Positions 4,547-40,396 of a DNA stretch of 56,376 bases are shown piece after piece. This stretch comes from a virus (Duplodnaviria; Caudoviricetes). The DNA lies in IMG/VR virus record IMGVR_UViG_3300036715_000633, positions 1 to 56,376 of that record; one strand, given 5' to 3'. How positions within the stretch are numbered: position 1 is the first letter of the stretch; every line of letters begins with the position of its first letter. The notes beneath the pieces are model-generated. The model saw nothing but the letters and a program-made list of their open reading frames with translations. It ran no database searches and was not told where the DNA came from. Made by a program: the position numbers and the translations under genes.

Positions 4547-4703
4547 TCCGGCCGGCCCGCTTCCCACCTTGACGCTGGGCCACTGGTAATAGTTGCTTTG
4601 TGCTATGATTGCTAATCGCAATTGAAAACAAGCCTGCCCTGTGAAATGCGGGGCAATTCCCATAGCCCGAAACCAGCCACGCGCTGTTAAAACCGAGGTC
4701 CTC

Positions 4704-5402
4704 GTGATTAATATTCAACCCATCGACAAGAAAACCGTTTCCGACGGAACCTTCCTCGATCTGCATTCCATCTTTTATACCATCCAAGGCGAAGGTCCTT
4801 TCGCCGGTCACCCTGCCGTATTTGTTCGCCTTGCGGGCTGTAATCTTCGTTGCCCTAGCTGCGACACTGATTATACCGAAGGTCGTCGCATCGTCCACCA
4901 CAAGGACATTGTAGATGGCGTGCTGTCGTTATTCCCTACTCGCGGTCGCCTGCATAAACTTGTGGTCATCACGGGCGGCGAACCCTTCCGCCAGAACCTG
5001 ACGAAATTGGCCTATGCGCTGAATGATGCAGGTTGCCACATTCAAGTGGAAACGAATGGCTCCCTGGCGGCACAAGGCGAGTTCCCGTTCCATGATAACG
5101 CCACGATTGTGTGCAGTCCCAAATCGGGCAAAATTGCCATTCAGCATGTGGACGTCTACAAATACGTGATTGACCGTAACAGCGTCGATCCTGTGGACGG
5201 TTTGCCAATCGAGGTGCTGGGTCATTCTGCCAGCCCTCACGTTGCACGCCCGCCTGCCGATTTCGATGGTCCAATCTATGTGCAGCCGATGGACACAAAG
5301 ACGGACGCGACGAAATTAAACATCGAAGCCGCCCGCCGTATCAGCATGGACCACGGCTACATCCTGCAACTGCAAATTCACAAAATCATAGGAGTGGAAT
5401 AA
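4704..5402 (+). CDS. queE: 7-carboxy-7-deazaguanine synthase (radical SAM)
   Basis: IFYTIQGEG, FVRLAGCNLRCPSCDT (CxxxCxxC), VITGGEP, ETNG, SPK, QIHK. Probable GTG start at 4704. Confidence 0.95.
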   Translation: MINIQPIDKKTVSDGTFLDLHSIFYTIQGEGPFAGHPAVFVRLAGCNLRCPSCDTDYTEGRRIVHHKDIVDGVLSLFPTRGRLHKLVVITGGEPFRQNLTKLAYALNDAGCHIQVETNGSLAAQGEFPFHDNATIVCSPKSGKIAIQHVDVYKYVIDRNSVDPVDGLPIEVLGHSASPHVARPPADFDGPIYVQPMDTKTDATKLNIEAARRISMDHGYILQLQIHKIIGVE

Positions 5403-6152
5403 ATGAAAGCCTTGGTTATCTTATCCGGTGGTCAAGATTCGACCACCTGCCTGTTTTGGGCAAAGCATTTTTACGAAGAGGTCCACGCGATTACGTTCGA
5501 CTACGGCCAGCGTCACTCCCTCGAAATCGAAGCGGCCCGTAAAGTTGCCAAGATGGCGGGCGTGGCTTCGCACGAAGTTATCGCACTGCCGAACTGCCTC
5601 GTATCGACCAGCCCGCTGACCTCAAACGAGGAACTGGAGCAATACTCCGACCATCGTCAAATGGAAACCGCCATCGGGGATCGTGTCGAAAAAACGTTCG
5701 TTCCTATGCGCAACATGCTGTTTTTCACCGTTGCAATGAATCGCGCCGTGGCGCTGGGCTGCACGCGTTTGGTAACGGGCATCTGTCAGGAAGATAACGC
5801 CAACTACCCCGACTGCACAGAAGATTTTCGCCAGCTGTTTGAGGAGACCGCAAACCAATCGCTAGGCCGAGATTCCGACCAGTTCCGAATCATCGCACCA
5901 TTAATGGATCGGTCGAAGGCTGACACCTGCAAGCTGGCGTGGTCGCTGCCCGGTTGCTGGATGGCGCTTGCGCATAGCCACACCAGCTACGACGGCAAGT
6001 ATCCGCCAACCGACATGAACCACGCCAACGTGCTGCGTGCAAAAGGCTTTGAAGATGCTGGCCTGCCCGATCCGCTGGTTGTGCGTGCATGGATGGAAGG
6101 TCTGATGCCGCTGCCGCGCACCACAAATTATAACGACGTACCGGGGGCGTAA
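5403..6152 (+). CDS. queC: 7-cyano-7-deazaguanine (preQ0) synthase
   Basis: PP-loop SGGQDSTT, FDYGQRH, TFVPMRN, YPDC. No N-terminal glutamine amidotransferase domain, so it is not Gat-QueC. Confidence 0.95.
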   Translation: MKALVILSGGQDSTTCLFWAKHFYEEVHAITFDYGQRHSLEIEAARKVAKMAGVASHEVIALPNCLVSTSPLTSNEELEQYSDHRQMETAIGDRVEKTFVPMRNMLFFTVAMNRAVALGCTRLVTGICQEDNANYPDCTEDFRQLFEETANQSLGRDSDQFRIIAPLMDRSKADTCKLAWSLPGCWMALAHSHTSYDGKYPPTDMNHANVLRAKGFEDAGLPDPLVVRAWMEGLMPLPRTTNYNDVPGA

Positions 6153-6619
6153 TGTATTACAGCACAAAGACCTATGGCCATGAAATTGGCTTATCCGCTG
6201 CATTTCGTCAATGGCGCGCCGAATCGCATTGCCGTCTGATCCACGGCTATTCGTTGGCGATTAAATTCGTTTTCGAGTCCGAGGACCTCGACGTTCGCAA
6301 CTGGGTTGTGGACTTCGGCAGTTTGAAGTCCCTCAAGGGTTGGCTGGAATCGACCTTTGACCACACGTTGCTGGTCGCCGAAGATGATCCCGAGAAGGAC
6401 CTTTTCGTTGCGCTCGACAACGCAGGTGTGGCGCGGATCGTTGTCGTACCCGCGACCGGCTGCGAAGCGTTTGCGGAATTAATTCACGAATGCACAACCG
6501 TGTGGTTAAAGGATAATGGCTATTCGCCGCGGGTGCGTTTGACCTCGGTAGAAGTTAAGGAACACGGTGCGAATAGTGCAATTTTTACTGGAGACAATAA
6601 ATGTCCAAACCTGTTTTGA
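6152..6619 (+). CDS. queD: 6-carboxy-5,6,7,8-tetrahydropterin synthase
   Basis: CRLIHGY, VVDFG, FDHTLL, E...VKE T-fold motifs. Confidence 0.92.
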   Translation: MYYSTKTYGHEIGLSAAFRQWRAESHCRLIHGYSLAIKFVFESEDLDVRNWVVDFGSLKSLKGWLESTFDHTLLVAEDDPEKDLFVALDNAGVARIVVVPATGCEAFAELIHECTTVWLKDNGYSPRVRLTSVEVKEHGANSAIFTGDNKCPNLF

Positions 6620-7182
6620 ATCTCGACCAATTCCACGAGGAAGATTTGATGCGCTTATTTTTGCAGCGCATCGCAGGCGTCAGTCCACACCGCGAAGGTC
6701 TGCAGGAAACACCTAAACGAGTAATCAAAGCGTGGCGTAAGTGGACCGAAGGTTACGAAATGAACGCCGCCGAAATCCTCAAGGTGTTTGAAGATGGCGC
6801 GGAGAATTACGACCAGATGGTGATGGTCAAAGATATTCCGATCTACAGCAAATGCGAACACCATCTGGCTGATATCTTCGGCACCTGCACGATTGCCTAC
6901 ATTCCGAATGGTAAAATTGTGGGCCTGTCGAAACTGTCGCGCCTCGCCGATATGTTTGCGCGTCGGTTGCAGGTCCAAGAACGTTTAACGCAGCAAATCG
7001 CGGACGCGTTGCAGGAACATTTGCAACCTATCGGCGTGGGCGTTATCGTTAAGGCGCGCCATATGTGCATGGAATCGCGTGGTATCTGTCAGCAAGGGCA
7101 CCACACCATTACAACAGCACTGCATGGCGCAATGAAGGACGATGCGCAAACGCGCAACGAATTTTTATCCATGGCCAAATAG
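6601..7182 (+). CDS. folE: GTP cyclohydrolase I
   Basis: ETPKRV, CEHH, GLSKLSR, RRLQVQERLT, HMCMESRG. Confidence 0.97.
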   Translation: MSKPVLNLDQFHEEDLMRLFLQRIAGVSPHREGLQETPKRVIKAWRKWTEGYEMNAAEILKVFEDGAENYDQMVMVKDIPIYSKCEHHLADIFGTCTIAYIPNGKIVGLSKLSRLADMFARRLQVQERLTQQIADALQEHLQPIGVGVIVKARHMCMESRGICQQGHHTITTALHGAMKDDAQTRNEFLSMAK

Positions 7183-7190
7183 GAGCAATC

Positions 7191-7835
7191 ATGGCGCAAA
7201 ATGATTCATTGGACAAAGTTATTCCGACGTACTTTGGCGCCTTTGCCACTGTGCCTTTTGTCTGGAAAAACAAGGAATATCGCCCGCGGACGCTTCGCGT
7301 GTCGCCGCATCTGGCTAGAGGGCTTTCGTGTCCTCCGATGTGCGGTGGCTGCTGTCCTAAATTCTCGTTGGATTATTTGCCATTTGAGGATAAACCATAC
7401 GACCTCGTGGAGCGCGAAGTTACCATTTTGGGTAAAACGTTTTCGGTGTTTTCGGATACGCAAAAAGGTAATTATACCAGCCGTTGCAAAAACGTCCGAC
7501 TTGATGACGGTCGGTGCTCCATTCACGGCAAACAGCCCTTTTCGTGCGATTTTGAGATAATCAGGGTTAAACATTTCAACGACCTGACTATGCCAAATCA
7601 AGTTTTGACAGCGCCATATGGACGCGGTTGGCAGTTGTTCCGCGTTGATAATAAAATGGGCGCACTGTGCGGCATCGAGGATGCTACGCAAGAAAATGCC
7701 AACGAGGCTGCGCGAAAATTGCGACGACTCAAAGGGTGGATGGAATACTTTGAAATTCCCCACAAATGTGACCGCGCCATCGCCTATCTGGAAAATGGCG
7801 AATGGAAAAACAATCAACCTATTTTCATCAACTGA
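7191..7835 (+). CDS. Cys-rich putative metalloprotein (CxxxCxxCC, YkgJ/FliB/DUF3109-like) inside the 7-deazaguanine operon; candidate base-tailoring enzyme
   Basis: ATG at 7191 behind AGGAG. CPPMCGGCC...RCKNV...GRCSIHGKQPFSC. Lies between folE and queF. Confidence 0.6.
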   Translation: MAQNDSLDKVIPTYFGAFATVPFVWKNKEYRPRTLRVSPHLARGLSCPPMCGGCCPKFSLDYLPFEDKPYDLVEREVTILGKTFSVFSDTQKGNYTSRCKNVRLDDGRCSIHGKQPFSCDFEIIRVKHFNDLTMPNQVLTAPYGRGWQLFRVDNKMGALCGIEDATQENANEAARKLRRLKGWMEYFEIPHKCDRAIAYLENGEWKNNQPIFIN

Positions 7836-7841
7836 CCTAAC

Positions 7842-8351
7842 ATGAACTCCTCCAAACACTTATCCGAAAACCTGCAAGCGCTGGGCAGCGAAAAGACCGC
7901 GTATTCTTACGACGCGCCGCGTAGCGCGTTGCTCGAAACGTTCCCTAGCCCAACAGCCGACAACGCGCTGAACCCGCACAGCGCCGCGCAAACGCTGCAA
8001 ATTCGCTGCCCTGAATTTACCAGCCTTTGCCCTAAAACGGGCCAGCCTGATTTCGCCACCATCGTTATCGAATACGAAGCCGACAAGGTTTGCGTGGAAT
8101 CTAAGTCGCTTAAACTGTACCTGGGTTCGTTCCGTATGTCCGGCGAGTTTCACGAGGCTTGTGTTAATCGCATCTGTAACGACCTCGTGACCCTGCTGGA
8201 TCCGAAATGGATCATGGTTCGCGGTGAATTCACTCCACGCGGCGGGATCCCGTTCTGGCCGACTAGCACCTGGCATCGTCGCCATGAAGGCTTTGGCGCA
8301 ATTGGTCACGACCTGCAAGCCCCTGGCTTGAATATGGCTTACGAAGGTTAA
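7842..8351 (+). CDS. queF: NADPH-dependent preQ0 reductase, unimodular type
   Basis: EFTSLCPKTGQPDFA (catalytic Cys and Asp), QueF motif ESKSLKLY, FHE, PRGGI. Confidence 0.95.
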   Translation: MNSSKHLSENLQALGSEKTAYSYDAPRSALLETFPSPTADNALNPHSAAQTLQIRCPEFTSLCPKTGQPDFATIVIEYEADKVCVESKSLKLYLGSFRMSGEFHEACVNRICNDLVTLLDPKWIMVRGEFTPRGGIPFWPTSTWHRRHEGFGAIGHDLQAPGLNMAYEG

Positions 8352-8355
8352 ACGA

Positions 8356-9285
8356 ATGCGCCTATTCTTTTCAGGATTTGGCGCGCACGATATCGACTTG
8401 GACCCGCGTATTCCGCGTGGTCCTCGTTATCGTCTGCTGTCATGCCACGAGGAATATTTGCGCGTGGCTCACGAATTTTCCACTGACCTCTGCACGTCCA
8501 TGGAGGACCCTTTTGAACTGATGTACGACTCGGGCGCATTTACTGCCTGGAGCAAAGGGAAGGAAGTGGTGCTGGATGATCTAATCCGCGTGTATGACGA
8601 AATGATGGGCTTGTATTCTCACCGTGCAGCTAACGTGTGGTTAATTTCGCTTGATAAGATTCCCGGGTCGCCAGGGCGTACGGCAGGGCCTGCGGAGATT
8701 GAAGATTGCTGCCGCATATCAGACGAGAATTACAGTATTCTGGAGAAACGTTATGGGCAGCGTGTTTTACCTGTATTCCACCAGAATGAATCAACCGCCC
8801 GCTTGCACGAAGTCGCGGCGATGGCGCCTTATATTTGCGTATCCCCTCGAAACGATTTGCACGAAACCGCACGCGTGCGTTGGTCCGCCGAGGTTCACGC
8901 ACAAATCCCAGGCAAGGATACGCACGGACTTGCTGCCACAGGTTATACCATGATGACCACAATACCATGGGGTAGCGTCGATTCCGCGTCCTGGATTTTC
9001 TGCGCAACCAACGGTGGCGTTATTCGAGACCACCACCTGCGCGTATTGCAAATGTCGGACAAATCATCCGCGCTGAAAAACACGGATCAACACTTCAAAA
9101 CATTACCCATACCACTACAGGAAACCTTCCGCGCATTTGTTGAGGCTCGCGGTTTTACAGTTGAAGGATTGGCTGAAAGTTTCCGCGAACGGCTGGTGTG
9201 GAACCGTGTTATGATTACTGAATTGTATCAATCTATTCCACAAAAACCTGACATCCCAATGGAAGTTGGTTTGTTCGATCTGTAA
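8356..9285 (+). CDS. dpdA: DNA 7-deazaguanine transglycosylase (TGT-like fold)
   Basis: TGT/DpdA-type motifs DSGAFT, LDKIP, PVFH, HGLA, SVDSASW. Last gene of the que cluster. Confidence 0.8.
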   Translation: MRLFFSGFGAHDIDLDPRIPRGPRYRLLSCHEEYLRVAHEFSTDLCTSMEDPFELMYDSGAFTAWSKGKEVVLDDLIRVYDEMMGLYSHRAANVWLISLDKIPGSPGRTAGPAEIEDCCRISDENYSILEKRYGQRVLPVFHQNESTARLHEVAAMAPYICVSPRNDLHETARVRWSAEVHAQIPGKDTHGLAATGYTMMTTIPWGSVDSASWIFCATNGGVIRDHHLRVLQMSDKSSALKNTDQHFKTLPIPLQETFRAFVEARGFTVEGLAESFRERLVWNRVMITELYQSIPQKPDIPMEVGLFDL

Positions 9286-9293
9286 GGTCTAAT

Positions 9294-10253
9294 ATGCTGG
9301 ACGTCCTTAAACTGGTGCGCGGTGCGGTGTCGAAAAAGGACATGCTGCCCGTGCTGACGCATTTCTATATCTACAATGGGCGCATACAAGGATCTAACGG
9401 GCGTCTATGCATCGATTCCGAATGCACGGGGCTCAACATCCCAAACCTCGTTGTCCCTGCTGATAAGTTCCTACGCGCCGTTGACGCGTGCGATGGCGAT
9501 CCGACGCTGATTATTAAGGACGAAAAACTGACCGTTAAAAAAGGCAAGTTTCGCGTATCGATAGCAACCCTGCCTGAATCGTCGTACCCTGTGGTATCCG
9601 AGTTTGATGGCAAAGCTGCGGAGATCAATGGTCCTATAATCCCAATGCTGAAAAAGCTGGCGCCGTTCATTTCGACCGACGCATCGCGCCCTTGGTCTAA
9701 TACGGTATTGATTTGGGAAGGTCACGCATACGCGACGAATAACGTTATCCTGCTGCGCGGTGAAATCCCTGTCAGTTCGATTCTAGTCCTACCTGTGTAT
9801 CTCGTGGATGAAATGGTGCGCATCGGTGAGGAACCGCTATCCATCAAATCGAACGGACACGGCGTTACGGTTGAATACGCAACCTTCAAACTCAAAGGTC
9901 AAAGGATCATGGACGAGTGGCCTTCAGCGCTTGTTAGCCTGCGCCAGAAAATGCTGCGCGACGATCTGCCCGAAGCCCTGCCGAACCTGTACGAGAATGT
10001 GGTCAAGTTGAAACCGTTTTTCCCTGACGAGAAATTGCCCGTGGTAGTATTCTCGGAAGAAGGTATCGGCACGCGTGATGGCGTGCAATCCGCATTGCTC
10101 GAAATCGAAGGACTACCCGCAGGCCTGTATCGCTTTGAATCGCTTGTTGCCACGCTGGAGATTGCGACCCACATTGACTTTACTATGTACCCGCAATCGA
10201 TACCGTTCCGAGGCGCCGGCATTGAAGGCCTCTTAACCTGCATGAGGTCCTGA
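9294..10253 (+). CDS. DNA polymerase sliding clamp (beta subunit-like)
   Basis: N-terminus GAVSKKDMLPVLTHF resembles DnaN; 319 aa; ATN motif; adjacent to the polymerase gene. Confidence 0.75.
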   Translation: MLDVLKLVRGAVSKKDMLPVLTHFYIYNGRIQGSNGRLCIDSECTGLNIPNLVVPADKFLRAVDACDGDPTLIIKDEKLTVKKGKFRVSIATLPESSYPVVSEFDGKAAEINGPIIPMLKKLAPFISTDASRPWSNTVLIWEGHAYATNNVILLRGEIPVSSILVLPVYLVDEMVRIGEEPLSIKSNGHGVTVEYATFKLKGQRIMDEWPSALVSLRQKMLRDDLPEALPNLYENVVKLKPFFPDEKLPVVVFSEEGIGTRDGVQSALLEIEGLPAGLYRFESLVATLEIATHIDFTMYPQSIPFRGAGIEGLLTCMRS

Positions 10254-12280
10254 TGGCGCGGGCTGACGATATTGGTTTATTCTGGGAAGATTTACCCCCA
10301 GTTAAGCCGCCTAAAAAAGAAAAGCCTAAACGCACGCCTCCCGAACGCACATGGGAGCATCCCGATTACTTGCCAGGGCTGGACGAGGCCTTGTCGTTTA
10401 AGTTTGACCTATTGACTGACGAGGAACTGGCGTTATATCGTGGCGACGAAATGGTGTGGGATACGGAGTGTTACCCTAACTATTGGCTATCGGCGTTCCG
10501 GCACATCAAGACCGGCAAAATCATTTATTTTGAAATGTACGAAGGTTGCCCACTTTGGATTTCAAAGATGGAGTGGGTCCTTCGTAATTTTTGCATCGTC
10601 ACATTTAATGGTCTGCATTACGATGAACCGATAACCACATTGGCTCTGGCGGGTAAGACTAACGCGGTCCTGCACTTTGCGACGTATCAAATCATTGAGG
10701 AGGGCTTGCGTCCTGGCGATGTGCTGCGCACCATGAAGGTCAAGCGACTGAAAGACATTAACCAGATCGACCTTATCGAGGTCGCCAAGGGTGATTGTAG
10801 TTTGAAGATATACGGCGGACGTATTCACTGCCCGCGAATGCAAGACCTTCCATTCAAACCCGGTACCGAGCTATCTGCCAATCAGATGGCGATTGTCCGC
10901 TGGTATTGCGTCAACGACTTAATAAACACCCAGTTGCTTCGTGAAACGCTGCACGAACAAATCGCTCTGCGCGTCACCCTGAGCCGTGAATACAAAATGG
11001 ACGTTCGATCCAAGTCCGATGCGCAGATCGCCGAGGCTTTGATTAGCCAGACCGTCGCACAGTTAAACGGCCGACGCCCTCAGGTGCCTAAGATTGCACC
11101 AGGGACGAAATATCGCTACACCGCGCCCGCGTGCATTCGATACCAATCACAGTTGCTCAACTGGGTCCTGCATATTGTGACCACAAGTGAGTTTGAGATT
11201 GGCGACAACGGGAGCCCTATTTTGCCAAAGCCGATCAAGGATTTGAATCTCGAAATCGCAGGACGACATTACCAGATGGGCTTCGGCGGTCTGCATAGCC
11301 AAGAGGAATGTATCTCGCATTTCGCGGATGACACTTACGAAATTTGCGACAATGATGTGGCGTCCTTCTACCCTCAAAACATCCTGAATAATCAGTGGTT
11401 CCCGCTGCACCTCGGACCTAACTTCCTCGTGGCGTATCAGGCATTCGTTACACGGCGATTGGCTGCAAAAGCTGCTGGAAACAAACCTGTTGCTGAAAGT
11501 CTAAAGATTGTTATTAACGGTGGATTCGGTAAGCTGGGCAGCATGTATTCCATTCTGTATTCTCCTGACCTTATGATTCAAGTCACGCTGACAGGTCAAC
11601 TGCTGCTGTTGATGATGATTGAGCGGCTGGAGTTAATCGGCATCCCTGTCGTGTCGGCAAACACCGACGGTATTGTGGTCAAATGCCCGCGAACGCGTAA
11701 GCACGAATTACAGGCTATCGTTAAACAATGGGAGTGCGAAACAAAGCTGGTAATGGAGGAAACGCAGTACAAATCTATTCATAGCGCAAATGTTAATAAT
11801 TATTTTGCCGTTAAACTTGATGGTACCACTAAGACTAAGGGCTGGTACGCAAACCCTTGGAACGACAAGAAAAACATTGCCACTCGACTTGAAAAGAATC
11901 CGACGGCAACAATCTGCACCGAAGCGGTAACGGAAATGATGATTTCAGGGACGCCGGTTGAAAAGACTATTCGTATGTGCGACGACGTTCGCAAGTTCGT
12001 TTCCATCCGAACAGTCAAAGGTGGGGCAGTTAAGGACGGGGTGTATTTGGGCAAGGCGATTCGCTGGTACTACTCGACCAAGGCGAGTGGTGAAATTATA
12101 TACGCACTGACCGGGAACAAGGTTTCCAACAGCGATGGCGCATTGCCGCTAATGAACCTGCCCGACGCGCTACCCGTGGACGTTGACTATGATTGGTATA
12201 TTCGGAAGGCCGAATCGATACTTGTGGATATCGGGTTGCAACAGGTAAATACTACCCCTGTTGCAGAAATACCCAAATAA
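10253..12280 (+). CDS. Family B DNA polymerase with 3'-5' exonuclease domain
   Basis: Exo motifs DTE, FNGLHYD, YCVND; polymerase motifs DVASFYP, KIVINGGFGK, NTDG. Confidence 0.9.
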   Translation: MARADDIGLFWEDLPPVKPPKKEKPKRTPPERTWEHPDYLPGLDEALSFKFDLLTDEELALYRGDEMVWDTECYPNYWLSAFRHIKTGKIIYFEMYEGCPLWISKMEWVLRNFCIVTFNGLHYDEPITTLALAGKTNAVLHFATYQIIEEGLRPGDVLRTMKVKRLKDINQIDLIEVAKGDCSLKIYGGRIHCPRMQDLPFKPGTELSANQMAIVRWYCVNDLINTQLLRETLHEQIALRVTLSREYKMDVRSKSDAQIAEALISQTVAQLNGRRPQVPKIAPGTKYRYTAPACIRYQSQLLNWVLHIVTTSEFEIGDNGSPILPKPIKDLNLEIAGRHYQMGFGGLHSQEECISHFADDTYEICDNDVASFYPQNILNNQWFPLHLGPNFLVAYQAFVTRRLAAKAAGNKPVAESLKIVINGGFGKLGSMYSILYSPDLMIQVTLTGQLLLLMMIERLELIGIPVVSANTDGIVVKCPRTRKHELQAIVKQWECETKLVMEETQYKSIHSANVNNYFAVKLDGTTKTKGWYANPWNDKKNIATRLEKNPTATICTEAVTEMMISGTPVEKTIRMCDDVRKFVSIRTVKGGAVKDGVYLGKAIRWYYSTKASGEIIYALTGNKVSNSDGALPLMNLPDALPVDVDYDWYIRKAESILVDIGLQQVNTTPVAEIPK

Positions 12281-35779: not shown

Positions 35780-38257
35780 TTAAGGGGTTATTTGCTGAAC
35801 CACGGTTGTGGTCGTTGCGCCAAAAGGTAACGCCCAGTTCGCGCCTACTGTAATACCTGAGGCCTTCGTTGTTCCAATGTCGCCCAGCTTACCTTGTCCA
35901 ATCGTTGCAGGGTTTGCCAAAATCAACTCATTAAAACTGGACGCGGGACCGTAGACTTTAATATCCGCCAGATTTAAATGGTGGGTCGCTGTACCTGTGT
36001 CAGTAAAACCGGAGCAAGCACCAGCCACGGCGTCCACAACGATTTTTGCCTGAAGGCACGACCAGCTATTTCCAGCCCCATCGTTGGAAGCTGTATTTTG
36101 CCGGAATCGAATCGCATTGGACCCACTTGGCTGATTGGCGTGGTAGGCTTCCAGCTGGAAGTCGTTACCTTCGCTAGTGGTATAGTTTTCCTGTGCGCCG
36201 AGGGTGGTGGTTGCCACAGGAGCGACGGTCCATGTGGCATTGGAAAAATCCAGTGTCGGCGCCGTGGCATACGACCCACCGCGGTCGATCTGAATACTGG
36301 CATCATCTAGTACGCCGTTTTCCACGCAGAATGTACCTACGGCGTTTACCGTAGGAGTACCGCCAGTGAATTTTAGTGCGTATTGCGTTCGGATCGAGGC
36401 ACCACCACTGCCCAACGCGGCCACAGTTGCGCCAATGACAGCCCCTGTAGTGGCGGCTGGAAACGCCACGTTATTGGCCGCGTTGGAGGATAAAATCAAG
36501 TAAATTCCGTTACCTGCTCCGCGCCATTCACGAGCCTTTAGCGACCCCTTGCAACGGCGCATAACGCCTTGCCACGAGATACCATTAAAACCACCCTTGG
36601 TGCGCACATTAACCTCGCAATCCAAATGTGGCCCGCCCGCGTCAGTGGCACTGCGAGTCGATACTGCCCATGTACTGGTTAAAGGGGTGGGAGATTCGTC
36701 CACGCTTATCAGATCAAAGCGGGTCCTTTCACTAACCCCGATTTCCACCAAGCTAATCAAAGTGCCACCCAGTTGCAGATTAGCAGAGTCACCCATAGAG
36801 CTTGCATTAATGACTCCGCTAAAATTGCTGGTACGACCTGCCGCCAAATTAGTCGCCGTTAATGTTGCGCTGTCACTGTGGTAACTTCGGATCGTAATAT
36901 CACTATCCTTAACCCCGCTTACTTGCACTAGCGAGTTAATGAAATCGGCCTCGATGTGCAACCGACGGGCGCGGGACACTGACGCACTACCTGTGGTGTC
37001 CATACCTATGTAACTTGTACCCGAATTTCTCACACGGCAATCTGTGATAGTGATATCGGAAGCCGGGCCGGTAACATTACCGTATAGCCCGATTGCAGGA
37101 CCCCAGCAATTTTCGATCCGCACATTATCAACCTCCAACATGGCGTTATCTGGAGAATCGATAGAGGCCAGCCCGCCATTGCGGGAGTTTTTAACCGTTA
37201 GACCTTTGATTTTGTTGCGGTAGCAGTTATTTGACAGAATAAATCCACCATTGGTATGCGCCACGGTATAATCAAAATTACTACCATCGATGTAAATATC
37301 CGTAAAGAAATTATCGTTGGACCAGCCATTCAAGTGGACCCCGTTACCCTGCGAATTCAACACATTGATATCACGGAAACGGGAGTAGCTCGAATTAGTT
37401 ACAACACCTTCCCCTGGCGCATTTGTGATGGTGATGTTATAAAAGAATGCCGCAGTATTGGCCGTGCGCAGTTCAGAGGTGCATTCCCAACGGCGATTAA
37501 GCAGGTTATTGGAGGCATTACCATCAATCGTGCCATTGTAGACGTAAACAGGCTGACCCGATGCGCGGCTGCATGTGTCCAAGGTCGGACCCATCGTTGC
37601 AATAGTTGCACCTGCTGCAAGGGTATCGATTACACCATTGCCTGAGATTAGAGCCAAGCCGTATGTGACACCTTCAAAAGTAAAGGTCCCCGTGGTACCT
37701 GGGCCGGGTGTGATTGTCTGAATAGCCAGGGCTTGATTGTTGTTGGTTTGAAGATATACCATTAAGCTGGTCGTCGCGTCACCTTGCCGGAGCCCTTTAA
37801 TATTGCAGGACATACCTACTTGCCAACCCGTGATGTCCGCAACCGCCACAGAAAACGCGCCAGCGCTTAGGGTCGCAGTAGTCGTGGTTGTAAGTTGTGG
37901 CGCACGTTTCAAAGTGGCTCCATTCATATCCAGCACCTGCCCCGCCTTCAGGCGCACGGCTCCGGAATAAATATTGTAAGTCGCACCTTGCGCCAGCGTT
38001 ATTTTTGCGCCAGCAGGTTGGTTATTAATGAAATCGCGCAGCAACGCAAAATCCGTTGCAGGGATGCCTGTCGGTGTTGGCGCCAAACTAGCAAGAGCCT
38101 GATATATTGCCCAACCGTTAGACAACAAGACCAAAGCATCCGCCAGTGGAACTTTAACCGGCACGCCCTGCGTTGACGAATAAACCGTACCGTTTGCATT
38201 TAACGAAGTGACGCGACCATCGGACGAGTCTGGTGGAACGAGGAGAATGGTTTGCAT
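35780..38257 (-). CDS. Tailspike/depolymerase-like right-handed beta-helix protein
   Basis: Pectin-lyase-like repeats (GTIDGN, ITNAPGEGV, NSQGNGVHL, IENCWGPAI). N-terminal ~50 aa shared with the next gene. Confidence 0.75.
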   Translation of the reverse strand: MQTILLVPPDSSDGRVTSLNANGTVYSSTQGVPVKVPLADALVLLSNGWAIYQALASLAPTPTGIPATDFALLRDFINNQPAGAKITLAQGATYNIYSGAVRLKAGQVLDMNGATLKRAPQLTTTTTATLSAGAFSVAVADITGWQVGMSCNIKGLRQGDATTSLMVYLQTNNNQALAIQTITPGPGTTGTFTFEGVTYGLALISGNGVIDTLAAGATIATMGPTLDTCSRASGQPVYVYNGTIDGNASNNLLNRRWECTSELRTANTAAFFYNITITNAPGEGVVTNSSYSRFRDINVLNSQGNGVHLNGWSNDNFFTDIYIDGSNFDYTVAHTNGGFILSNNCYRNKIKGLTVKNSRNGGLASIDSPDNAMLEVDNVRIENCWGPAIGLYGNVTGPASDITITDCRVRNSGTSYIGMDTTGSASVSRARRLHIEADFINSLVQVSGVKDSDITIRSYHSDSATLTATNLAAGRTSNFSGVINASSMGDSANLQLGGTLISLVEIGVSERTRFDLISVDESPTPLTSTWAVSTRSATDAGGPHLDCEVNVRTKGGFNGISWQGVMRRCKGSLKAREWRGAGNGIYLILSSNAANNVAFPAATTGAVIGATVAALGSGGASIRTQYALKFTGGTPTVNAVGTFCVENGVLDDASIQIDRGGSYATAPTLDFSNATWTVAPVATTTLGAQENYTTSEGNDFQLEAYHANQPSGSNAIRFRQNTASNDGAGNSWSCLQAKIVVDAVAGACSGFTDTGTATHHLNLADIKVYGPASSFNELILANPATIGQGKLGDIGTTKASGITVGANWALPFGATTTTVVQQITP

Positions 38258-38290
38258 TTTTGGATTCCTTATTGATTAAGTTAATGCGCG

Positions 38291-40396
38291 CTAGTCGTAG
38301 GTGTTTACTGCGGGCGGGTTAGCGGTTCGCACGGCTTGCATAACAACGCATGACCCGGAATGTGCGGTGCCCGATATAAAGTCCATACCTTCCGCGTAGG
38401 ACGCCGCTCCTATCAAATTACCAGCCTTGTCTTGCCAGAAATTACGAATGGACGAAGTTTGCCCGGTGTTGTAATTGCGAGTTCGCGCCGCGTAGGCCCA
38501 GTCCGATCCATTAGGTGAGGTCCAGAAATGATGATAGGGCTCATTCACTGTTGCGGTACCTTGGGTACGCAGCGACCCATACACGAATCCACCTTTGGCG
38601 CCCTTGTCGATAACTATGCCAACATTCCCGGACCCTGCATCAGCCATCACAATATCAGGACCGGTAGGAGTTGCGCGAAGCGTGCCCGTGTCAACACCCG
38701 TGGAAATAAAATAGTAGGGCGTGTTGGCTTGCAGCGGTGACGGAATCGCCCCTGAGGAGGTGACATACACCTGCTGTTTAGACAGCAACCGATGGGACCA
38801 GCAAGTAATCGTCGCACTTGCTGCCGTAGCTTTAATATTTCGCCGCGACTCTTTTCGCAGTGTGACTCCGATCAAAGGTGGGATATCATCCTGCCGTTCC
38901 AAACGGTTGCCCGCGCTAAGCCACGCCAATTTTTTGTCCATCGTGATCGAACTATAGGCGTCGTTCCATCCGATAGTTTTTTCGTTGTCGCAGTCAAGCA
39001 AGCCAAACACAAATTGCTCACCGAACACGAGGTCGCCGCAGCGGTTTAACTCACTGCCGTAAATGCAATTCCAGCCAGGTGTTGCTGCAATTTGCGCAAA
39101 TGTGGAATTTGCTACAGGCGCAGCACTCACCCCGTCCCATACGATAATCGCATTCTGCGAAGTGGTTTCCGTGGGCGCGTCATTGTCCCCTGTCAGGATA
39201 TAAATAAGGCCTGAGCTTGGGTCTTGGATTACGGCGTGCATGTGGTTAATGAGGTGCGTGCCGTTTGTGTTAAAGGTCAACAGCGCCGACCAGGTCAAAC
39301 CGTCATCCAGCGACTGCCACAAACGAACGGCGTCATTGGCACCACCCGGAGTGCGTGATCCGTTAACGTTGTATTCGGCAACAAGAACCTTGTAAACATA
39401 AGGCGACCCTTTTGGGTCTTGGACCTTGGCCTCACATACGGAGCGTTGATGCAGAATCCGAACGTTTTGCACCATCGTGTTACTGAGCCCGTCCGACGCG
39501 CCCAAGTTCAATACTGCGCGACCGTTCGTACCATTTAAATCATTACCCAGCGCGTATTTTGTCGCCGAGGTTGGCGATGCGCGCCAAAACATAAGGTTGG
39601 AAGAGTAGTTACCCGCGGCACCGCCCGCGACAAGAGTTGCCGCCGTTGCACCACCCGAACCCACAAGAATGGCTCCCGAATTTAAAACCTTGGCAATGCG
39701 AATAGTCGTACCGCTCCCGCCCATGTTGATCGTACCATCCGCTGATTTAGGGCAATTAACACCATTCGATATGGAAAAATTCCAGGTGTTAATTGCGGTT
39801 ATAGTCCCGCCGGCAGGGGCTTGCGTGATGTCACCATCGTAGGCATAGAGCTTGCGAACGAAATCACCGTTAGGACCATCCGAACACAAATAGGTCCCGT
39901 CTGGCAAATGCCCGAACGGCAAAACGGGAACCGACGCCAGACGATTCAGGGCGAGATAATTACCGGGCACGCTGGGCGCCATTTGCGAATCGCCGCTTTG
40001 CACGACAATGGAAATATTACCCGCCGTGGAGGTGACCACATAGGTCTGAATACCTTGCACCGCTGCGATTGTGATCGGCCCGCCTTGCGAGATTGCCCAC
40101 ACTGATCCATCACCTACGCGCAGAATTGAACCTGTGGAATTTACGTCACCTTGTACCGTGACGGCAAACCCGTCAAAAACCTGAAACGTTTTAGGGTTGC
40201 CCGGCGAGGCAATAAACGGAGTGTTACTACATACACCTTGGAAGTATTGCCAACCGTTAGCCAACAAAACCGACGCGTCAGCAGCACCCGCAGAAACGGG
40301 AACACCCTGCGTGGAGGAGTAGGTCGTACCATTTGCGACCAATGTGGTAACGCGCCCGTCGGTCGAATCAGGCGGAATCAATAACGTCGTGGACAT
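38291..40396 (-). CDS. Virion fibre/spike with Asp-box (BNR) beta-propeller, sialidase/glycosidase-like
   Basis: WQSLDDGLTW, HMHAVIQDP..G.IYILTGD, WTSPNGSDW. Same N-terminal module as 35780..38257. Confidence 0.65.
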   Translation of the reverse strand: MSTTLLIPPDSTDGRVTTLVANGTTYSSTQGVPVSAGAADASVLLANGWQYFQGVCSNTPFIASPGNPKTFQVFDGFAVTVQGDVNSTGSILRVGDGSVWAISQGGPITIAAVQGIQTYVVTSTAGNISIVVQSGDSQMAPSVPGNYLALNRLASVPVLPFGHLPDGTYLCSDGPNGDFVRKLYAYDGDITQAPAGGTITAINTWNFSISNGVNCPKSADGTINMGGSGTTIRIAKVLNSGAILVGSGGATAATLVAGGAAGNYSSNLMFWRASPTSATKYALGNDLNGTNGRAVLNLGASDGLSNTMVQNVRILHQRSVCEAKVQDPKGSPYVYKVLVAEYNVNGSRTPGGANDAVRLWQSLDDGLTWSALLTFNTNGTHLINHMHAVIQDPSSGLIYILTGDNDAPTETTSQNAIIVWDGVSAAPVANSTFAQIAATPGWNCIYGSELNRCGDLVFGEQFVFGLLDCDNEKTIGWNDAYSSITMDKKLAWLSAGNRLERQDDIPPLIGVTLRKESRRNIKATAASATITCWSHRLLSKQQVYVTSSGAIPSPLQANTPYYFISTGVDTGTLRATPTGPDIVMADAGSGNVGIVIDKGAKGGFVYGSLRTQGTATVNEPYHHFWTSPNGSDWAYAARTRNYNTGQTSSIRNFWQDKAGNLIGAASYAEGMDFISGTAHSGSCVVMQAVRTANPPAVNTYD

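Follow-up and report, generated by a model that had tools for sequence, protein, structure and literature searches.

Candidate clamp-binding motifs at the termini of DpdA and DNA polymerase in phages that encode a beta-type sliding clamp

In phages, the replacement of guanine by 7-deazaguanines is described as a post-replication event that is catalyzed by the transglycosylase DpdA (PMC10516641). When DpdA from phage 9g was expressed in Escherichia coli along with Gat-QueC, both from plasmids, up to 18% of the guanines in plasmid DNA were replaced (Hutinet 2019, PMC6884629). Bacterial DpdA depends on DpdB, a ParB-like ATPase; in a model, the DpdB dimer surrounds a tunnel of 20 Angstrom, which has space for double-stranded DNA (PMC10164549). 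For another kind of modification, a link to a sliding clamp is known: the alpha-glucosyltransferase of phage T4 binds the clamp gp45, and modification concomitant with replication was proposed (Sommer 2004, cited in PMC13216743). Here we analyze IMG/VR virus record IMGVR_UViG_3300036715_000633, a complete virus record of 56,376 bases, all of which we will call the window. The window encodes, in order, a DpdA homolog, a homolog of the bacterial beta sliding clamp, and a DNA polymerase. The C-terminus of DpdA and the N-terminus of the polymerase share a G-L-F core. On balance, we favor the view that these are clamp-binding motifs, which would dock in the pocket of the phage clamp and would tether DpdA to replicated DNA.

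Proteins that bind the bacterial beta clamp do so with the consensus Q-phi-x-[LM]-[FL] or Q-phi-x-[LM]-x-[FL], and LF alone can bind (PMC11139829). The motif may be at the C-terminus, as in Pol II and Pol IV and also in the alpha subunit of Pol III, or at the N-terminus, as in Hda (PMC11139829). The window's proteins and their relatives resemble these clients: they have a terminal L-F or L-x-L peptide, which in many DpdA relatives comes after a Gln, at the end of a putatively flexible stretch, and one clamp would serve several clients. They also differ. At position 2, the DpdA motif is seldom aliphatic, and in the polymerase motif, the Phe is followed by a conserved Trp and the Gln is missing. 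Also, the client here would be a base-exchange transglycosylase, a kind of enzyme that the available part of PMC11139829 does not list as a clamp partner.

The homology of the window's DpdA to the characterized phage DpdA is established. With tblastn, we matched it to annotated phage DpdA or queuine tRNA-ribosyltransferase genes in 173 records, and it is about 25-29% identical to the DpdA proteins of 9g, the iggy-like PBPA162, and other annotated phages. It did not match any family in Pfam or NCBIfam. The alignment of DpdA has invariant Asp, His, and Ser columns, and the gene comes after a complete preQ pathway module. The protein ends with ...SIPQKPDIPMEVGLFDL-stop (the same C-terminus is also given as ...QSIPQKPDIPMEVGLFDL-stop).

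To describe the conservation of this tail, we used the best 120 metagenomic relatives (42-86% identity), which were taken from 283 matches among 1062 candidates. LFx[LIVAF] endings are present in 106 of the 120. Counting back from the C-terminus, position -4 is L in 110/120, position -3 is F in 111/120, and position -1 is L in 105/120. Gln is found at -7, the canonical spacing, in 55/120. Upstream of the motif, this conservation ends: at -8, the commonest residue is present in only 19/120, and the linker cannot be aligned. In another alignment of 70 DpdA sequences (A1), F307 never varies, and conservation reaches 90% or more at L306 and L309. More distant relatives often keep the tail as well. 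A profile search of a library of 1.84 billion protein representatives gave 4609 matches; among the best 150 of these, the tail is kept in 86, or in 40/50, 37/50, and 9/50 by rank.

As a background, [LIM][FW] lies within the last 6 residues of 107 of 3266 other stop-to-stop segments. In six frames, the window has 278 open reading frames (ORFs) of at least 60 amino acids, and only four of them have a terminal [GSPT]LF-type pattern: DpdA, the polymerase, and two ORFs that are antisense inside other genes. Among the 1356 ORFs that were called in 84 loci, the C-terminal pattern is found in 56, and by our reading of the list, 42 of the 56 are DpdA. Judging by this conservation, the tail of DpdA is a short linear motif, far beyond what chance would give, and its Pro-rich, unalignable linker suggests that it is flexible.

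One of the DpdA loci has another protein with a similar ending. In L006:7957-8550, a 197-amino-acid protein (phrog_15826, 1e-34) is encoded between dpdA and the clamp gene, and it ends with SPGLFY. We considered that it might be a second DpdA-like enzyme, and we rejected this idea as its profile is not similar to that of DpdA (hhalign probability of 0.5%). It could be another clamp client.

The polymerase of the window starts with MARADDIGLFWED (10253-10291), followed by LPPVKPPKKEKPKRTPPE (Pro/Lys linker). The first-pass annotation of this DNA had pointed out that DpdA and the polymerase carry terminal GLF motifs and flank a clamp gene; the sequences are as it described, and the homology to clamps is supported by profiles, as discussed below. 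No Pfam family matched the polymerase. Using phmmer against PDB, we found weak matches to family-B polymerases over about 80-125 residues (1s5j, 3.7e-5; E. coli Pol II 1q8i, 5.8e-5). In the window and in its closest named relatives, the clamp gene is followed by a gene for a family-B-like polymerase, and in many other loci a family-A polymerase is encoded there (PF00476 at 1e-49 to 1e-70). Both kinds of polymerase start with M-R-x-D-x-x-G-[LMF]-F-W-x-[DE]. The core G[LMF][FY]W is present in 15/15 of the family-B-like polymerases that are encoded after a clamp gene and in 34 of the family-A polymerases in that position. The other 18 family-A polymerases mostly have variants, such as GFAW, GVFW, GLAW, GIFW, or NLFW. 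The peptide is absent from 5/5 family-A polymerases in loci without a clamp. Among the called ORFs, the N-terminal pattern occurs in 55 of 1356, and again by our reading of the list, 48 of these 55 are the replicase after the clamp. The N-terminal peptide persists while the catalytic body changes family, and it is best explained as a putative handle for the conserved clamp that is encoded upstream.

The clamp-linked replicase can be of another kind. In L066:9042-12533, and also in L116, L153, and L165, it is a DnaE-type Pol III alpha with PHP, alpha, and finger domains; the L066 protein has a C-terminal uracil-DNA-glycosylase (UDG) domain as well. The clamp-polymerase pair is also retained in phages without dpdA (FtMidnight, DLP_2, and Lucius; L094:3828-6959, L095:3757-6962, and L096:3797-6929). 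The family-B-like polymerases of L094-L096 start with M.NEQGFI or MFFDD and end with LFF, SFF, or MFA. Two of the clamps from these three loci share a D(K/D)DIPF ending and carry N-terminal extensions that are basic.

The gene between dpdA and the polymerase shows clear homology to beta clamps by profile comparison. A profile from an alignment of 39 phage clamp relatives (A2) matched bacterial beta clamps in PDB; the best match was to 7rzm (1.7e-14, profile positions 3-282), and the E. coli clamp 1mmi was matched at 2.6e-13. The length of the clamp and the span of the alignment fit three domains. By itself, the window's clamp scored below the curated cutoffs (17.5 versus 24.4 bits for PF00712 and 24.8 versus 137.65 bits for TIGR00663). 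With this single sequence as the query, we found no relatives for the comparison of loci, and we used alignments of DpdA instead.

For the peptide pocket, we used the list of residues from PMC11139829 and an alignment of the 39 phage clamps with E. coli DnaN (from L177). In this low-identity alignment (E. coli numbering), T172 is kept in 39/39, P242 in 35/39, and R152 in 32/39; V360 stays hydrophobic; and R365 corresponds to R or K in 26/39. An alignment with hidden Markov models concurs for R152, Y154, T172, and P242. Of the 25 most conserved columns of the clamp, 11 are within one residue of an E. coli pocket position, as compared to 36 of 303 columns overall (p = 2e-5, hypergeometric test). 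By this measure, the putative pocket region appears to be the most conserved part of the phage clamp. In the clamp of the window, such a pocket would be lined by R132, W134, T148, N150, P210, L313, and M317-R318.

The first-pass annotation had proposed a comparison of clamp-encoding and clamp-lacking phages. We assembled a first set of loci from IMG/VR by using the DpdA alignment (80 kept of 204 confirmed), and we added named phage records and the window. This gave 91 loci with 78 distinct DpdAs. The tail is tied to the clamp gene: 51 have both the clamp gene and the tail, none has the tail without the clamp gene, 12 have neither, and 12 have the clamp gene and no tail. In one more case, the tailed gene is at the end of the contig, and two are incomplete. 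Among the 12 tail-less cases with a clamp gene, 4 have variants that are displaced or are similar to Q..LLG.L. Searches of whole records found no clamp in 4 complete clamp-less genomes, all of which are tail-less. The ten named phages with the order dpdA-clamp-polymerase all have the tail: 9g, JG054, PBPA162, SLUR25, R7M, S0112, VpKK5, RHEph06, BcepGomr, and the ytsc phage. From Rinkes and Mufasa8, both the clamp and the tail are absent. phiSM has a bacterial-like clamp of 360 amino acids that is encoded 2.5 kb away, and it lacks the tail.

We also examined a more distant clade of DpdA (alignment A3; 80 loci kept of 544 confirmed). The clamp gene is present in 76 of these 80 loci. Two tailed DpdAs from this second set appeared to lack a clamp. 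For L151, a search of the whole record found the clamp 10 kb away, and L161 ends 322 bases past the gene. The replicases in this set are fusions of UDG with an exonuclease or a family-A polymerase, or are DnaE-type enzymes, and they start with M-x-G-F-F. The DpdA tails of this clade often end with GF.L, GFF, or SFF. Among clamp-encoding members of the second clade, 29 tails are F-type, 26 are L-type, and 18 have none; the corresponding numbers for the first set are 1, 44, and 14. The sole F-type locus of the first set is L064, and its replicase starts with PGFF. Within the first clade, we did not see fine-scale co-variation of the polymerase peptide and the DpdA tail; for instance, GFFW polymerases pair with L-F tails. 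At the level of clades, the type of tail changes along with the replicase peptide, which favors a shared partner that is encoded by the phage over the host clamp.

The UDG fusions are also found outside the second clade. Fusions of UDG with a 3'-5' exonuclease (or with a family-A polymerase) are encoded after the clamp in L064, L067, L070, L075, and the majority of L097-L176. These start with M-x-G-F-F, and a CxxCGL element comes next. Many of the DpdAs in L097-L176 have a conserved W-P-W-[AP]-F-K about 6-10 residues before the terminal hydrophobic motif.

Given these results, we propose the following mechanism. The polymerase would gain processivity from the phage clamp, and DpdA would use clamps on replicated phage DNA as a sliding tether. 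DpdA would then exchange guanine for 7-deazaguanine, here probably of the preQ1 type, a short distance behind the fork and over the entire genome. In that case, modification would precede the host nucleases' encounter with unmodified DNA. Docking itself, the choice of the phage's clamp over that of the host as the partner, and a benefit in timing and processivity are all inferred.

Several observations weigh against this proposal. The window's tail (EVGLF) has the L-F pair of the clamp-binding consensus and lacks both the Gln and an aliphatic residue at position 2, which is seldom aliphatic across the family; the polymerase peptide (IGLFW) also lacks the Gln. In the low-identity alignment of the clamps, nothing aligns with H175 and R176, and two residues of the Gln pocket, N320 and Y323, are changed, although an altered Gln subsite would fit motifs with an optional Gln. 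We found no gene for an AAA+ clamp loader of the delta/gamma type in the window (49 ORFs were scanned with PHROGs and 18 with Pfam), so loading of the phage clamp must fall to host factors or happen in another way. A recognizable tail is missing from some clamp-encoding lineages (12/63 in the first set and 18/73 in the second set), and because the pattern that we used to type the tails is permissive, a few of the L-type assignments are doubtful. The association of the clamp with the motif is also confounded by descent: in the DpdA tree, the motif is found in two clamp-linked clades, and a test with independent pairs had just 1-2 usable pairs and no power. We take the two-by-two table as support rather than proof, and our case rests on conservation. 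For T4, a 2026 study reported that the level of expression, not binding to gp45, mainly sets the share of DNA that is modified (PMC13216743). Finally, in E. coli, plasmid DNA is modified by the DpdA of 9g with Gat-QueC when the phage clamp is not there (PMC6884629).

This last result bears on what a tether might do. Since 9g DpdA can modify a plasmid without the phage clamp, the tether is dispensable for catalysis, and DpdA is not confined to phage DNA. The first-pass annotation had suggested that the clamp recruits both the polymerase and DpdA, that this would restrict modification to nascent phage DNA, and that the phage could thereby tell its own DNA from the host's. The idea of recruitment is strengthened by the conservation of clamp-type motifs that are tied to the clamp gene. 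A lack of conservation in homologs was named there as a refutation, and the motif is in fact conserved. The ideas of confinement and of self/host discrimination are not supported, given the modification of a plasmid by 9g DpdA and Gat-QueC. A kinetic role or a role in processivity is more plausible.

Could the tails have another explanation? The first-pass annotation allowed for chance, and the motifs in the window are short and lack the canonical Gln. Its remark about the Gln holds for the window's copy, although 55 of the 120 relatives carry one. Its caution about chance does not survive the conservation data. L, F, and L are near-invariant across the 120 relatives beside a linker that cannot be aligned; the tail is kept in more than half of the best 150 distant matches; and the background rate is low (107/3266, as above). 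We give practically no weight to a chance resemblance without function. It is also rather unlikely, in our judgment, that the tail is a peptide for some other interaction (with the polymerase, another phage protein, a protease, a chaperone, or another DpdA in an oligomer) and is like a clamp-binding motif by coincidence. Short hydrophobic termini do have many functions, and the tail is missing in some lineages that encode the clamp. But the same G-L-F core is found on the replicase terminus in the same genomes, and on two non-homologous families of polymerases. Also, the tail accompanies the clamp gene, and the putative pocket region appears to be the most conserved part of that clamp.

Another potential partner is the host's DnaN, with the phage clamp serving the polymerase alone. 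The family consensus Q-x-[GS]-L-F has the same Gln spacing as bacterial clamp-binding motifs, and 9g DpdA is highly active in E. coli, where DnaN is present and the phage clamp is not. Host clamps can be used by phages: in phage Mu, the MuC protein contains two clamp-binding motifs and depends on DnaN (PMC12867686). However, tails in the first set are found only in loci that encode their own clamp. The tails from phages of E. coli, such as LQDLFDE in 9g and VMELF in SLUR25, lack Gln at position 1. And the shift of the tail type with the replicase peptide between clades would be unexpected if the tails were adapted to unrelated hosts. We consider docking on DnaN to be unlikely, and we prefer docking on the phage clamp.

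If phage DpdA with a tail uses a clamp, what about DpdA without a tail? In 11 loci, a ParB_N-like gene adjoins a tail-less dpdA. By number, these are L071, L074, L076, L078, L079, L080, L083, L089, L090, L091, and L154 (which is from the second set), and they include the named phages Rinkes, phiSM, and Mufasa8. The similarity to ParB was identified with Pfam for three loci and with iterated searches for the rest, along with weak matches to ParB families in NCBIfam. Jackhmmer searches that were seeded with two actinophage proteins returned the seeds alone, and searches that were seeded with the Pfam-confirmed ParB_N neighbors succeeded. The same Pfam and iterated searches found no ParB-like gene in the window or in any tail-bearing locus. 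The phage ParB_N-like neighbors may be counterparts of the bacterial DpdB. The gene neighborhoods suggest that DpdA has two alternative partners that ride on DNA, either a clamp or a ParB-like protein.

More speculatively, DpdAs might generally need a partner that encircles DNA. This would be the ParB-like NTPase DpdB in bacteria and in clamp-less phages, or the replisome's beta clamp, bound via the C-terminal tail, and the two would be interchangeable. In the clamp phages, 7-deazaguanines would then be inserted by sliding that is coupled to the replisome, instead of by a free post-replicative enzyme. We offer this generalization tentatively, as a possibility that we would not yet bet on. The dichotomy between the clamp and ParB would connect the phage enzymes with the unexplained requirement of the bacterial system for DpdB.

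The likeness of these systems has limits. Bacterial DpdA is homologous to the transglycosylase in the window, and it needs a partner that acts on DNA; the window has a beta clamp and a tail peptide in place of DpdB. Similarly, the phage clamp is homologous in sequence to DnaN and its pocket is partly conserved, but it is encoded by the phage, has about 320 amino acids, and is below the curated cutoffs for DnaN. As with T4 alpha-glucosyltransferase and gp45, an enzyme of phage DNA hypermodification would be associated with the phage's own sliding clamp, except that binding was seen in T4 and is predicted from sequence here. The T4 enzyme glucosylates 5-hydroxymethylcytosine, instead of exchanging a base, and the types of clamp differ. 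gp45 is a PCNA-like trimer. In eukaryotes, DNMT1 and UNG2 bind PCNA through PCNA-interacting peptide (PIP) boxes. These are also DNA-modifying or base-excising enzymes that are tethered to a clamp by a short peptide, but the clamp family, the motif, and the chemistry all differ, and the comparison is an analogy only. For the T4 enzyme, no terminal consensus motif is named in the available part of PMC13216743. MuC has clamp-binding motifs at both its N- and C-termini that link a late function to replication (PMC12867686). Unlike DpdA, MuC is described in that source as using the host clamp and activating transcription, and not as modifying DNA.

Docking on a clamp by a modification enzyme thus has a precedent in T4, and we did not find the link between DpdA and a clamp in print. 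Full-text literature searches, judged by titles and abstracts, returned no mention of such a link, and we found no paper in the full-text literature on clamp-binding motifs together with phage DNA modification. The words "clamp" and "processivity" do not occur in PMC6884629, PMC10516641, or PMC10484667 (main texts), nor does "clamp" in the main text of PMC10164549; their supplements might contain tables of gene neighborhoods with a bearing on this. Also, the main texts that we searched offered nothing on how DpdA gets to at least a quarter of the guanines in time. If our proposal is correct, a clamp-docking tail would be a concrete mechanism: DpdA would be tethered on new DNA and would scan it by sliding, and nascent DNA would be shielded from restriction. 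A base-exchange enzyme would join the clients of sliding clamps. For a large family of beta-like clamps encoded by phages, which serve polymerases of family A as well as family B, the binding motif would thereby be defined. In tractable coliphages such as 9g or CAjan (a dpdA deletion of CAjan was used in PMC6884629), the tail offers a small target for mutagenesis, and it is a simple marker for sorting DpdA sequences from metagenomes.

The features of the window that we discuss are listed in the table. The structural and lysis genes are on the minus strand and the replication module is on the plus strand, which is a siphophage-like layout. The stop codon of the clamp overlaps the ATG of the polymerase (TGATG), and the gene order dpdA-clamp-polymerase is conserved among relatives. 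A megablast search with positions 8356-12280 against phage records found no near-identical phage.

Table. Genes and motifs of the 7-deazaguanine and replication region of the window
Feature	Positions	Strand	Evidence or remarks
7-deazaguanine precursor module (QueE to QueF)	4641..8351	+	upstream of DpdA
QueE	4641-5402	+	PHROGs match
QueC	5403-6152	+	PHROGs match
QueD	6152-6619	+	PHROGs match
FolE	6601-7182	+	PHROGs match
CxxCxxCC-domain ORF	7191-7835	+	PF03692 at 22.7 bits, just below the cutoff of 23
QueF	7842-8351	+	Pfam PF14489 3.9e-31; NCBIfam TIGR03139 (preQ1 synthase, equivalog) 136.7 bits, cutoff 86.9
DpdA, DNA-guanine transglycosylase homolog, 309 amino acids	8356-9285	+	phrog_887 1.6e-39
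DpdA variable Pro-rich linker QSIPQKPDIPM, residues 292-302	9229..9261	+	positions -8 to -10 unconserved
DpdA C-terminal motif EVGLFDL, residues 303-309	9262-9282	+	family consensus Q-x-[GS]-L-F-[DGE]-L-COOH
DpdA stop codon	9283-9285	+	
Phage beta-type sliding clamp homolog, 319 amino acids	9294-10253	+	phrog_947 2e-34; profile versus PDB
DNA polymerase, family-B-like, 675 amino acids	10253-12280	+	phrog_1252 "DNA polymerase" 2.9e-205
Polymerase N-terminal motif DDIGLFWED, residues 5-13	10265..10291	+	consensus D-x-x-G-[LMF]-F-W-x-[DE]
Polymerase Pro/Lys-rich linker, residues 14-31	10292..10345	+	sequence and length differ among relatives

Because QueF is present, the modification in the window is probably of the preQ1 type. 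We predict that the phage's DNA probably carries dPreQ1 or a derivative of it, rather than dPreQ0 or dG+.

The CxxCxxCC ORF between FolE and QueF has a putative zinc/iron-chelating domain (PF03692, as in the table) and matches PHROGs families 16018 and 21666, to which no function is assigned. From its location, it is a candidate for an additional enzyme of the modification pathway.

On the minus strand, at 35780-40396, there are two large ORFs (825 and 701 amino acids) without a match in PHROGs. The 825-amino-acid ORF has a weak match to a right-handed beta-helix family (PF13229, 9.4e-6), which suggests a tailspike-like protein.

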